Below are positions 46,407 to 49,305 of a DNA stretch of 64,000 bases, in pieces. Within the stretch, counting starts at the first letter, position 1. Each line of letters begins with the position of its first letter. Under the pieces are notes generated by a model. It had not been told where the DNA came from and did no database searches. It worked only from the letters and a program-made list of their open reading frames with translations. Source of the DNA: Shigella phage Ag3; sequence record FJ373894, one strand, 5' to 3'. Position numbers and translations under genes: made by a program.

Positions 46407-48626
46407 TCACCGTCTCAGCCATTCTTCCATGGACATGCCAGAGCGTTCGTCATACACCTGAACTCCACCAAACCCTGGGATACTCTCTATAGAGTGAGGA
46501 TCTGGTGTTGAAAGCACACCCCCGAAAGGTAACATCTGAGATTCTTCCATCGCAGATAATCTTCCTCTCATGTCCACAGAGATACTTGAGTTTGTGAGAT
46601 CACTAAACCATTCTTGTTTCACCGCCCATGCATAGAGCACGAGAGGCATCACACAGTCATCATGACAACCATCATCGGCTTCATACCTTGTCCCAGTCCA
46701 TACGAATGTACTGAGTTCATCTATCGTGTCTTGGTCATCAACCACCAGCATCTCACGTTCGATAAGCGCCTTGAGGTTAGCACAACCATTCGAACGCACT
46801 TTCTTGTTCGTGTTGATGCCAGGCTCAGGGCGGCGGCCACCAATTCGTTTGCCAGTACCCTTCGCATCTGTGGTAGTGAAGATGATCTCTGGGTATTCAA
46901 TTTCCTGGTATAGAATTGTGATTACCTGGCCGCCCACGTCGTTGTTGGTTTCAACCAGCATCGGACACGTGCCATATTTCTCGCCCATGTCGGCGATAGT
47001 GTATGCATACATCATTGGAGGTATCGTGTTGTTCCGATACTTGGCCGCAATCTTGTGAGGATAGTCTGTGATATCCAAGATGGTCAGAACAGAGTAATCC
47101 CCCTCCACACCTTTGCCTGTATCGGCGATACCCATGTAGATGCGCTTCGGATCGTAATCGTGGTAGATCTTGGTGAACTCGTTCGGCTCCTGATAGAGTT
47201 TCGAGGTCATCTTGTCTAGACACTTGGCAGGTATCAGTGATCCTACAGAACCACGGAACTTGATACCGAATTCCTGATCGAAACGTGCATCGCCCAGCTT
47301 CGCCCTCTGTTTGGATTCCCAGTTCGGATCCTTGGTGTATGTTGGAACACGATACCATGGAACCTCTGTGAGTTTGAAGTCGTTGTACTGAGGGTGTTCT
47401 GGGTTCGCCTTGGTGACGATGTCGTAGAACAACCCGCGCTGACCTTTCGGCGTACTGGTCAGGATACAACGTGATGTATCTGCAGATGCAATCGCCGGGA
47501 ATGTAGACTCCCAGAATTCAAAGTCGTTTTCGATGAACGCCACTTCGTCCACATACAGTAGCGATACGGAACGACCACGGATAGAGTCAGAAGATGTCGC
47601 ATAAGCATAGATCTTCGATCCGTTTTCGAACTCGATGAGTGTGGAGCCGAACTTCTCACAACCCTGTTGGAGGAAGAATGGCAAATCCTGGTATGCCTTG
47701 CGGATACGGTCTAGGATTTCAATCGCCTGCTTCTCTTTGTTCGCCAGTACCGCGATCTCTTTGTCAGAGTGGAACATCGCATACCAGAGCAGGAACGCTG
47801 CTACGACTGTCGTGTTGTGGCTGAGGAAGCCGTTGGTGTAGTAGCGCTGATCACTAGATTTCACCTGCAGGTCAAACATGTGATGCATCTCACCAGTCTG
47901 CCATACCTCAACGACTTCTTCTAGACCTTCTTCGGTCATTAGCCGTGAACCAGCAACCAGATCTTTAGCAAACACTTCCTTCATGTTCTGATTGAAGAAC
48001 ATGTGATCATCGGCCACGTTGATACGACGACCACTGGAAGTGATGACAACGTACTCTTGGTACAGCTTAGTCTTGTGCGCGGCGATGACAGGCACCCAGC
48101 CTTTGTCACAGCGAACAAAATAACGCTTGCCGAAGCGGCTGTCTACGAACTTATCGTGTTTGCCAAAGGCATTCAGTGGCTCGGCGTGATTTGGTCCCTC
48201 GAAGCGGCTGTGAAGCTCCTCGATGGTGACTTTAAACTCTTCTTGGCTGAACGTATCGTAAACCTCGACGATGCTGTCACCCTTCACACACTTACCAGAC
48301 TGACGCGCCTGAACCACGGCGTTGAAGCGGTGATCCTGGAAGTCATGGAACAGCTGCTTCTGATAATCATGCATATCGAAGAGGATGAAGCCCTTATCGA
48401 TGGTCGTGATCTTGTAGTAGTTGGCGGCGAAGTAATGAGCGTCCATTGCGCACTCAACGAACTCCGATTCTTGATCGTCGGTCAACATCAACTCTACACG
48501 AGGAGCACGCACAGACGGCTTGCGCATGAACGTCTGGTCCATACGCAATCTGACATCATCAATCTTGAATCCCGTCTTTATCGGGGCATATTCAATATCA
48601 CGCTTCTGATACGCCATCGTCTTCAC
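46407..48626 (-). CDS. 17: terminase large subunit gp17, interrupted in-frame by a mini-intein
   Basis: Walker A QSGK/TTVVA split by 159-aa insert; downstream ATPase and nuclease regions T4-gp17-like; about 580 aa once insert is removed. Confidence 0.9.
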   Translation of the reverse strand: MKTMAYQKRDIEYAPIKTGFKIDDVRLRMDQTFMRKPSVRAPRVELMLTDDQESEFVECAMDAHYFAANYYKITTIDKGFILFDMHDYQKQLFHDFQDHRFNAVVQARQSGKCVKGDSIVEVYDTFSQEEFKVTIEELHSRFEGPNHAEPLNAFGKHDKFVDSRFGKRYFVRCDKGWVPVIAAHKTKLYQEYVVITSSGRRINVADDHMFFNQNMKEVFAKDLVAGSRLMTEEGLEEVVEVWQTGEMHHMFDLQVKSSDQRYYTNGFLSHNTTVVAAFLLWYAMFHSDKEIAVLANKEKQAIEILDRIRKAYQDLPFFLQQGCEKFGSTLIEFENGSKIYAYATSSDSIRGRSVSLLYVDEVAFIENDFEFWESTFPAIASADTSRCILTSTPKGQRGLFYDIVTKANPEHPQYNDFKLTEVPWYRVPTYTKDPNWESKQRAKLGDARFDQEFGIKFRGSVGSLIPAKCLDKMTSKLYQEPNEFTKIYHDYDPKRIYMGIADTGKGVEGDYSVLTILDITDYPHKIAAKYRNNTIPPMMYAYTIADMGEKYGTCPMLVETNNDVGGQVITILYQEIEYPEIIFTTTDAKGTGKRIGGRRPEPGINTNKKVRSNGCANLKALIEREMLVVDDQDTIDELSTFVWTGTRYEADDGCHDDCVMPLVLYAWAVKQEWFSDLTNSSISVDMRGRLSAMEESQMLPFGGVLSTPDPHSIESIPGFGGVQVYDERSGMSMEEWLRR
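47814..48290 (-). mobile_element. mini-intein (159 aa) in terminase P-loop
   Basis: Insert starts with Cys right after SGK, ends with HN, followed by Thr that restores GKT; block A-like CVKGDSIV; no homing-endonuclease-sized domain; boundaries verified at codon level. Confidence 0.8.
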
Positions 48627-49305
48627 CTTCTTCCTTCGGCTCTGCCTGAACTTCGATTACATCTTCTTCGGGATCAGGTCCTTTGGACGCAGCTTTCGCT
48701 GCAGTACGTTCTTCAGCACGTTTACGGGCGTCTTCGATGGTCTTCAGTAGATCACGGGAAGACCTGGCCTGTTTGCCGACGTTGACCGTGGTTGTACCAT
48801 CAGGGGACGTGGTGACCTCGACGGTTGTTTCGTCCCCAGGAGGTGGCTCTTTGTCGCCTGTAACGGCCTTGATGGTCTTCTGGTTCTCCATCAGGTCTTT
48901 GTTCAGACCGCGCATGAGTTCGCCCAACTCTTTGAAGACTGTGAACGCGCGGGGTGCTTCAGTGGTCGTCGCGAGTTTGGCCGCCTGTCCCATCATGAAC
49001 ATCGTGGCTTCCTGCATGGCATAAGTCGTGTCACGGATGCGTTTGTAGTCGGTGGTGGCGTCCGTGTCTTCGAAGTCTGGAACCTTAGACTCCTTGGACT
49101 TCAGCTCTTCTGGGTCCAGAGAAGGAGGGAACACCACAGGCTCATACCCTGCAGGCTTTTCACCCAACCATTCGCCTGTATCCGGATCATAATCTTTTCC
49201 AGCCACAGGCGAGGTCTTCTCCATGACTTCTTGAGCGACCTCATCCCGCGCTTGGATAGCACCGAGGGTGGACAATAGGCGTTCTGACATAGCACTCATA
49301 ATCAA
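48598..49305 (-). CDS. 16: terminase small subunit gp16
   Basis: DYKRIRDTTYAMQEATMFMMGQAA and FTVFKELGELM align to T4 gp16; overlaps gp17 start. Confidence 0.75.
   Translation of the reverse strand: MIMSAMSERLLSTLGAIQARDEVAQEVMEKTSPVAGKDYDPDTGEWLGEKPAGYEPVVFPPSLDPEELKSKESKVPDFEDTDATTDYKRIRDTTYAMQEATMFMMGQAAKLATTTEAPRAFTVFKELGELMRGLNKDLMENQKTIKAVTGDKEPPPGDETTVEVTTSPDGTTTVNVGKQARSSRDLLKTIEDARKRAEERTAAKAASKGPDPEEDVIEVQAEPKEEGEDDGVSEA

Follow-up and report, generated by a model that had tools for sequence, protein, structure and literature searches.

The window analysed here, a 64,000-nucleotide stretch of Shigella phage Ag3 DNA (record FJ373894), comes from a Vi1-like, Agtrevirus-like member of the Ackermannviridae. 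All features described below lie on its minus strand. The open reading frame at 46407..48626 translates to the large terminase (TerL) sequence quoted in the original prediction, and the gene for this gp17-like TerL precursor, terL, occupies 46407..48617 (736 codons plus stop, based on the reading frame, Pfam and the annotation of relatives). Pfam identifies Terminase_6N (63 bits) and Terminase_6C (27.8 bits) domains in the product. The gene is 99% identical at the nucleotide level to terL of Salmonella phage P46FS4, which is annotated as 2211 nt long. Translation most likely starts at the ATG at 48617 rather than at the GTG at 48626, since the ATG yields a 20-nt terS/terL overlap and the N-terminus MAYQKRD, both of which are annotated in relatives. 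The gp16-like small terminase gene, terS (48598..49305, based on its reading frame and on synteny with annotated relatives), is directly upstream and overlaps the terL start.

With the ATG start, TerL has 736 amino acids. The N-extein (aa 1-109, 48291..48617) ends in the first half of the Walker A motif, ...ARQSGK, based on alignments and a codon check. It is followed by a 159-aa, 18.5-kDa segment at 47814..48290 (residues 110-268), which we interpret as a class 1 mini-intein from a gap in intein-free alleles, a HINT fold and profile matches. The C-extein (46407..47813; 468 codons, comprising 467 residues and the stop codon) carries the remainder of the ATPase domain together with an RNaseH-like nuclease domain, as identified by Pfam and by alignment to T4 gp17. 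The computed masses are 84.6 kDa for the precursor, 66.1 kDa for the ligated exteins and 18.5 kDa for the intein, and agree with the values of about 84 and about 66 kDa given for precursor and product in the original prediction.

In Ag3 there is no homing endonuclease gene between terS and terL, and the 64-kb window contains no free-standing endonuclease nearby that could confer mobility on the intein. A free-standing endonuclease near the intein occurs in phages LIMEstone1 and pSal-SNUABM-02.

Insertion between the lysine and threonine of the P-loop

The insert, CVKGDSIV...YYTNGFLSHN, comprises 159 aa and corresponds exactly to 47814..48290. With ...VVQARQSGK before it and TTVVAAFLL after it, it separates Lys and Thr within the Walker A motif of TerL (ARQSGK/TTVVA). 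Its extent and flanks had been predicted from the DNA letters, and translation reproduces them exactly, with the correction that the coding strand is the minus strand. When Ag3 TerL is aligned with two 580-aa TerLs that lack the intein, one from Erwinia phage Bue1 (Ackermannviridae) and one from Vibrio phage D508, the gap spans exactly 159 residues and the GK/TT flanks are invariant. The joined exteins align to T4 gp17 (3EZK/3CPE, E = 4e-71) without a gap through SRQLGKTTVVA, which bears out the claim that removal of the insert restores a contiguous GKT as in T4 gp17. Based on the exact 159-residue gap in two homologues and the gapless extein alignment, we conclude that the insert is not a chance pattern.

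Intein-free clusters number 56 among the 120 best TerL matches, and Bue1 and P0015-P0019 are close relatives that lack the intein. The comparison with related alleles suggested in the original prediction thus finds terminases that do without the segment, the opposite of a conserved terminase domain shared by related phages.

An insertion of this kind could also be apparent only, if it arose by chance or from misassembly, mistranslation or an intron read as protein. We consider the probability of this to be negligible. The reading frame is continuous; some 280 independent phage genomes carry this 477-nt segment in frame, and its dN/dS is well below 1. These observations and the gap in the intein-free alleles refute an artefact.

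Fold, family profiles and splicing residues

The AlphaFold2 (AF2) model of the insert has a HINT fold (pLDDT 95.3, pTM 0.88), its secondary structure consisting entirely of HINT strands and two short helices. A Foldseek search of the PDB returned 69 matches at E ≤ 1e-3, and each of the top 50, with TM-scores of 0.6-0.8, is an intein or an intein-like HINT (BIL) domain. The best match is VidaL (E = 1.7e-11, TM-score 0.76/0.83). The HINT fold fills the 159 residues, consistent with the claim that the insert is too short for a homing endonuclease, and no LAGLIDADG, HNH or GIY-YIG domain was matched in it using Pfam and NCBIfam.

A profile of the family matches gp41-1 (7e-12), VidaL (1e-10) and CatC (1.8e-8) in the PDB. 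By profile and fold, gp41-1, VidaL and NrdJ-1, which derive from phage or metagenome sources, are the closest solved structures. Like the Ag3 intein they have a compact HINT domain and no endonuclease, but they are located in other host proteins, are naturally split and share only about 18-21% identity with it. On the insert, the Pfam model Intein_splicing (PF14890) scores 32.9 bits (E = 6.7e-8), below its 35.8-bit cut-off, and on the isolated insert TIGR01445 (15.9 versus a cut-off of 24.5) and TIGR01443 (10.7 versus 15.6) are also sub-threshold. PF14890 matches 20 of 21 members of the intein family at E ≤ 0.01. Given these sub-threshold matches to curated models, the intein assignment is based on the intein-free alleles, the fold and the family profile. 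In a set of 5.8 billion proteins the isolated intein as query retrieved 2 matches, and the whole TerL was used as the query instead.

The splicing residues were checked codon by codon. The N-terminal nucleophile of block A, Cys1 (TGT, 48288..48290), follows Lys-1 (48291-48293). The listed TerL clusters include 27 contiguous P-loop inteins; 26 of them share this Cys, and one, P0081, has Ala1 instead. Block B reads A-D-D-H, from Ala93 to His96 (48003..48014, with His96 at 48003-48005). Across the family the His is invariant, and so is the Ala at the position where the canonical TxxH has Thr; as the Ala is fixed family-wide, it is evidently tolerated. Block F contains Asp140 (47871..47873) and block G is His158-Asn159 (47814..47819; His158 at 47817-47819, Asn159 at 47814-47816). 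In the family alignment H96, D140, S157, H158 and N159 are invariant. The first residue of the C-extein, Thr+1 (ACG, 47811..47813), is both the C-extein nucleophile and the Thr of the Walker A GKT, as judged from the alignments and its codon. The +1 residue is T in all contiguous relatives, or S in P0062, and T or S is likewise found there in each of the 26 contiguous P-loop inteins of the listed clusters that begin with Cys. The Cys1, C-terminal His-Asn and Thr+1 named in the original prediction are thus all in place. A class 3 intein was rejected, given the presence of Cys1 and a block F in which Asp140 lies in M-F-D-L-Q-V without a Cys.

Could such a domain be retained without splicing? It might have been domesticated and stay in mature TerL permanently, as the product name 'pretoxin HINT domain protein' in the records of Dickeya phages phiD3, phiDP23.1 and RC-2014 may suggest, along with a weak match to Pfam PT-HINT (PF07591, 19.6 bits). 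We regard this as very unlikely. The PT-HINT score is under the 27.7-bit cut-off and weaker than that of Intein_splicing, and Cys1, His-Asn and the +1 nucleophile are all conserved, although a domain that does not splice could dispense with them. Moreover, the Lys and Thr that the domain would hold apart sit side by side in T4 gp17 and the intein-free relatives. Identity as a pretoxin HINT domain was rejected because the score is sub-threshold and the sequence downstream is the terminase ATPase/nuclease and no toxin.

It is likewise highly improbable that the domain acts by cleavage only, in the manner of BIL or Hedgehog-like autoprocessing, so that TerL is cut in two and never ligated. BIL domains do occur among the structural matches, but at Foldseek ranks 42-49, with true inteins ranking higher. 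Conservation of the +1 nucleophile and the penultimate His-Asn also argues against this reading, as does the fact that separate halves would leave a broken Walker A motif in an essential enzyme whose exteins are strongly constrained (dN/dS 0.02-0.04).

The variable linker, aa 30-47 of the intein (FEGPNHAEPLNAFGKHDK, 48150..48203), was delimited from model confidence, the alignment and a split relative, L010. It is the least confident part of the AF2 model (pLDDT 85-89 in blocks 31-50). Its length differs among relatives, and split relatives are naturally broken at the same position. Position 61 also varies (C, S, T and others).

Relatives and inheritance

The Ag3-type TerL intein is not new, having been annotated and published in related phages. 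Genome announcements from 2013 to 2019 describe it (PMC3868846, PMC3853055, PMC6486243, PMC6763660). TerL inteins orthologous to that of Ag3 are known from Salmonella phages Maynard and Marshall and Klebsiella phage Magnus, and one is also reported for Mooltan; all are Ackermannviridae. Those of Maynard, Marshall and Magnus interrupt the same gene at the same K/T site, have the same length (159 aa, 477 nt) and are 72-76% identical to the Ag3 intein at the amino acid level. The phages differ in genus, Ag3 being Agtrevirus-like and the Maynard/Marshall/Magnus group belonging to Kuttervirus and Taipeivirus. The published notes for Maynard, Marshall, Magnus and Mooltan are based on InterPro matches only (PMC3868846, PMC3853055, PMC6763660, PMC6486243), and we found no splicing experiment on this intein in the literature consulted. 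The RefSeq record of the nearest relative, P46FS4, carries no intein annotation.

Terminase large subunits also harbour the atypically split inteins AceL-TerL and GOS-TerL and the engineered consensus Cat (PDB 6DSL), for which trans-splicing is reported in a review (PMC11766414). CatC (6dsl_B) is the best single-sequence PDB match to the Ag3 intein (E = 0.012). The link from Ag3 to AceL-TerL and GOS-TerL runs through CatC and metagenomic split relatives, and the insertion site of AceL-TerL and GOS-TerL is taken from a review and from these split relatives. Identity between the Ag3 intein and the IntC parts of metagenomic split TerLs is 36-50%. In metagenomic relatives that share the GK/C...SHN/TT site, the break falls exactly at the position of the variable linker of the Ag3 intein. 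In the split relative L010, a 117-aa TerL-N ending in a 35-aa IntN is followed by a 251-aa open reading frame and then by IntC and the C-extein. In contrast to the split family, which has two genes and an IntN of 25-37 aa, the Ag3 intein lies in one continuous reading frame with no intervening gene and is predicted to splice in cis.

Insertion between the K and T of the P-loop has been called 'classic', and other TerL inteins have been shown to splice (PMC5050341). The mycobacteriophage TerL1-a P-loop inteins of that study occupy the same Walker A site, with an invariant Lys and a nucleophilic Thr. The likeness is one of insertion site; the host of TerL1-a is a Terminase_1 protein and that of the Ag3 intein a Terminase_6 protein. 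The Terminase_6 inteins in the same study were located in the C-motif and not in the P-loop, and the five inteins whose splicing was assayed did not include TerL1-a (PMC5050341).

The intein was found in 308 phage records, in 280 of them with at least 80% coverage. For unsaturated pairs, dN/dS is 0.04-0.18 in the intein and 0.02-0.04 in the extein; by this measure of sequence divergence the intein is under purifying selection. Its GC and GC3 track those of the extein in each lineage. Because of this match in composition, recent horizontal acquisition in the Ag3 lineage was rejected. A mosaic pattern relative to AV101 indicates recombination within the intein. Its inheritance appears to be vertical, with sequence exchanged occasionally by recombination. 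Splice competence would be kept because loss of splicing would inactivate an essential gene.

The long retention without an endonuclease, across several genera and in enterobacterial Ackermannviridae, invites a further reading, namely that the intein is more than a parasite that is tolerated and has been co-opted as a post-translational timer or switch on the terminase. Splicing would be held back or would await a trigger (temperature, redox state, TerS, or binding to DNA or the prohead), and ATPase and nuclease activity would then appear only late in infection. The variable linker (residues 30-47) would be a scar left by an earlier split site or endonuclease insertion. Such a switch would extend a splicing intein and does not exclude it. 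The ameliorated composition and purifying selection on the whole intein are in keeping with a switch, a regulatory role of P-loop inteins has been discussed by Kelley et al. (PMC5050341), and the Ala peculiar to block B of this family could make the first step slower. However, any intein in an essential gene should be under purifying selection, so this observation does not discriminate, and close relatives such as Bue1 and P0015-P0019 manage without the intein. Nor does the family alignment contain a second conserved Cys able to form a redox trap. We consider both a switch and a linker scar unlikely.

Splicing and DNA packaging

We conclude that the segment at 47814..48290 is a contiguous class 1 mini-intein in the Walker A P-loop of a T4-type (Terminase_6) TerL, with a probability of roughly 93%. 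Based on this assignment and on the conserved residues, TerL would be made as an 84.6-kDa precursor with an interrupted ATP-binding loop, and this precursor would be inactive. Cys1 would attack the Lys-1 carbonyl (N-S acyl shift), and the N-extein would pass to Thr+1 by trans-esterification. Cyclisation of Asn159, aided by His158, would free the 18.5-kDa intein, and an O-N shift would then give the native ...RQSGK-TTVVA... P-loop in a 66.1-kDa terminase. The efficiency of the reaction is, like its chemistry, a prediction. We soundly infer that DNA packaging depends on splicing, as had been predicted; PMC5050341 likewise argues that the active site and the pentamer can form only after splicing.

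As terminase P-loop inteins are a well-described class, no new biological question is opened. The assignment matters for annotation, since many records leave the intein unmarked and some name a 'pretoxin HINT domain protein'. It also affects terminase phylogenies, in which intein and extein do not evolve alike and the intein appears to recombine, and the recombinant expression of TerL. The Ag3 intein is a relative, from a cultivable phage and predicted to splice in cis, of the AceL-TerL and Cat split inteins used in biotechnology. If splicing works as proposed, packaging in Ag3 and in about 280 sequenced relatives, which are used for biocontrol of Salmonella, E. coli, Klebsiella and Dickeya, would need an autocatalytic splicing step.

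Position of the insert within the large terminase gene

The insert in the large terminase gene (terL) lies at 47814..48290 on the minus strand. The position given in the original prediction, a mini-intein splitting the Walker A P-loop, is correct to the base, and single codons were checked. In the ORF translation, ...VVQARQSGK is followed by the 159 residues CVKGDSIV...YYTNGFLSHN and then by TTVVAAFLL. Removing the insert makes the P-loop contiguous, as had been claimed, and T4 gp17 (3EZK/3CPE, E about 1e-70) aligns gaplessly to the two exteins, once joined, across SRQLGKTTVVA / ARQSGKTTVVA. Thus, the insert parts Lys from Thr of Walker A. We also compared the protein (TerL) with intein-free alleles. 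Against the TerLs of Erwinia phage Bue1 (Ackermannviridae, Nezavisimistyvirus) and Vibrio phage D508, 580 aa each, the gap is exactly the 159 residues, with RQSGK and TTVVAAFLLWYA invariant on either side. Functional intein-free homologues exist and, among the best 120 TerL clusters in a large protein set, 56 have no intein at the P-loop site.

The ORF listing of the window gives terL 739 codons (46407..48626, minus strand), with GTG 48626 as the mechanically called start. In this region (48615-48626, minus strand) ATG 48617 is the likely start, because the resulting MAYQKRD N-terminus and 20-nt overlap with terS (stop codon at 48598-48600) match annotated relatives. A purine-rich stretch, GAAGGAAGAAGGTGA, is found upstream of this ATG. 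From ATG 48617, TerL has 736 aa, the insert occupies residues 110-268 and is flanked by the Pfam domains Terminase_6N and Terminase_6C, and the computed masses are 84.6 kDa for the precursor, 66.1 kDa for the joined exteins and 18.5 kDa for the insert.

Salmonella phage P46FS4 and Shigella phage MK-13 (Agtrevirus, Ackermannviridae) share 99% identity with the window in the terL region, which has nucleotide matches in 311 phage records and sits in a T4-like module (gp13-gp14-gp15-terS-terL-sheath-tube-portal). Nearly all long ORFs in the window (1-64000) share the minus strand, which fits a single large late/structural and replication module. ARAGORN found no tRNA genes in the window.

Fold and catalytic residues

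The insert is an intein based on five independent lines of evidence: intein-free alleles, the restored host motif, fold, sequence and catalytic residues. The AlphaFold2 model (input alignment of 32 sequences) has a mean pLDDT of 95.3, and the 50 PDB entries that Foldseek ranks highest against it are without exception inteins or related HINT (BIL) domains, led by VidaL (E 1.7e-11, TM 0.76/0.83). There is no additional domain in the model, only two short helices (residues 23-43), and the intein lacks an endonuclease. A profile of 21 aligned members of the intein family matches the PDB inteins gp41-1 (7e-12), VidaL (1e-10), CatC (2e-8) and NrdJ-1 (7e-5). Pfam Intein_splicing matches 20 of these 21 members; the window insert alone scores 32.9 bits, narrowly below the curated cut-off of 35.8, and is sub-threshold for TIGR intein models too.

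A class-1 catalytic set is conserved. The family shows no variation at His96 (block B), Asp140 (block F), Ser157-His158-Asn159 (block G) or a few structural positions, and Cys1 together with Thr or Ser at +1 is shared by all 26 contiguous, Cys-initiated P-loop inteins among the listed TerL clusters. Block B (48003-48014, minus strand, residues 93-96) reads A-D-D-H family-wide versus the canonical T-x-x-H, its Ala and first Asp being invariant in 21/21 members; this is the sole departure of the catalytic residues from the textbook. The intein is assigned to class 1 because Cys1 is present and a block-F Cys is absent, features that rule out class 2 or class 3.

Distribution, selection and related architectures

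By tblastn the intein occurs in 308 phage records (280 nearly full length), almost all from enterobacterial Ackermannviridae (Kuttervirus, Taipeivirus, Agtrevirus, Limestonevirus, Miltonvirus). Distant copies (28-41% identity) were found by tblastn in the T4-type terminases of Salicola SCTP-2, Delftia PhiW-14, Campylobacter CPt10/CP21 and Agrobacterium Atu_ph07. The intein is under purifying selection: based on unsaturated pairs, dN/dS is 0.04-0.18 for the intein versus 0.02-0.04 for the extein, so the intein is constrained, although more loosely than the terminase. GC and GC3 of the intein track those of the extein in every lineage, which argues for a long residence in terL. Compared with Escherichia phage AV101, amino acid identity is 97.1% in the extein but falls to 75.5% in the intein. 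Divergence begins near the N-terminal splice site and extends to roughly nt 720 of terL; the last part of the intein, ~85 nt up to its C-terminal splice site, is again 97-99% identical. Such a mosaic resembles the outcome of recombination among intein alleles in Aglimvirinae.

Free-standing homing endonuclease genes lie directly upstream of intein-containing terL in LIMEstone1 (F-LimIX, L004:2492-2748) and pSal-SNUABM-02 (NUMOD3 motif, L007:2498-2772), and might promote co-conversion of the terL region. The window has terS at that position and lacks such an endonuclease gene.

Other architectures occupy the GK|C...SHN|T(T/S) site. Some relatives have longer contiguous inteins (162-181 aa), and many TerL proteins in the large protein set start mid-intein. 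Cluster P0081 has a 329-aa intein at the same K|T site (ALALDT...PTHN|T) with Ala1 and a LAGLIDADG domain (PF14528). This intein belongs to another lineage and probably to another mechanistic class. For one of the proteins that start mid-intein, P0074, the contig of a metagenomic T4-like phage (L010:1633-4674) shows that terL is truly split at the P-loop intein, in the order 117-aa TerL-N ending GK plus 35-aa IntN, an unannotated 251-aa ORF, and TerL-C starting with IntC. A second such phage (L011:2018-5289) is split at the same intein based on its TerL-C side, with a 335-aa ORF directly upstream. By eye the two intervening ORFs have common motifs (NPxYxHxGKxSPFSxKF; RQSTFSLEKCIxxHGEE), and Pfam gave no confident match to them; they possibly form a family of 'fractured gene' homing endonucleases. 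The L010-type split point coincides with the variable, lower-confidence linker of the window's intein (residues 30-47). The L010 arrangement is also that of AceL-TerL and GOS-TerL, which are atypically split inteins; when the window's intein is compared with the PDB as a single sequence, their consensus, Cat (6DSL), is the best match.

Some TerLs carry further elements. P0050, P0060 and P0062 have a second intein at IRG(K/R/Q)S|C, just upstream of Walker B LLY(V/L)DE, alongside a P-loop intein that is contiguous in P0050 and P0062 and an IntC half only in P0060. In the called products of Vibrio phage TerLs (P0053, P0061, P0066, P0083, P0087, P0090) the sequence departs from TerL after ...QEFEC, and GIY-YIG (PF01541) replaces the nuclease domain, which suggests that the gene caller ran on through an inserted intron or endonuclease element. 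The P-loop intein is also present in P0053, P0061 and P0066.

Prior knowledge and implications for packaging

The finding is correct and already known, since records of Klebsiella phage Magnus and Salmonella phages Maynard and Marshall carry a mat_peptide annotation for the orthologous 159-aa intein, genome announcements from 2013 (PMC3868846, PMC3853055) and 2019 (PMC6486243, PMC6763660) describe a large terminase 'interrupted by an intein', and the K|T position is a 'classic' insertion (PMC5050341). TerL is the commonest mycobacteriophage intein host, and splicing has been demonstrated for several TerL inteins (PMC5050341). Annotation across GenBank records is inconsistent. Several Dickeya phage records (among KM209228, KM209320 and KJ716335) name TerL 'pretoxin HINT domain protein', and P46FS4 (NC_049509), the closest RefSeq relative, has no intein feature, as in most records listed. 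Our additions are modest: alleles of the family that precisely lack the intein, a fold modelled with confidence, selection and mosaic analysis, a link to split TerL inteins, and the non-canonical block B Ala.

A literature search found no experiments on the window's TerL intein. Sequence and model support the original interpretation as an intein, with splicing itself predicted. From established intein chemistry, an N-S acyl shift at Cys1 would be followed by trans-esterification onto Thr+1, cyclisation of Asn159 and an O-N shift yielding the native P-loop. A regulatory role through conditional splicing seems very unlikely. Unspliced precursor would be unable to bind or hydrolyse ATP, so that, from what is known of P-loop ATPases, DNA packaging would require splicing, as Kelley et al. 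have also argued (PMC5050341).
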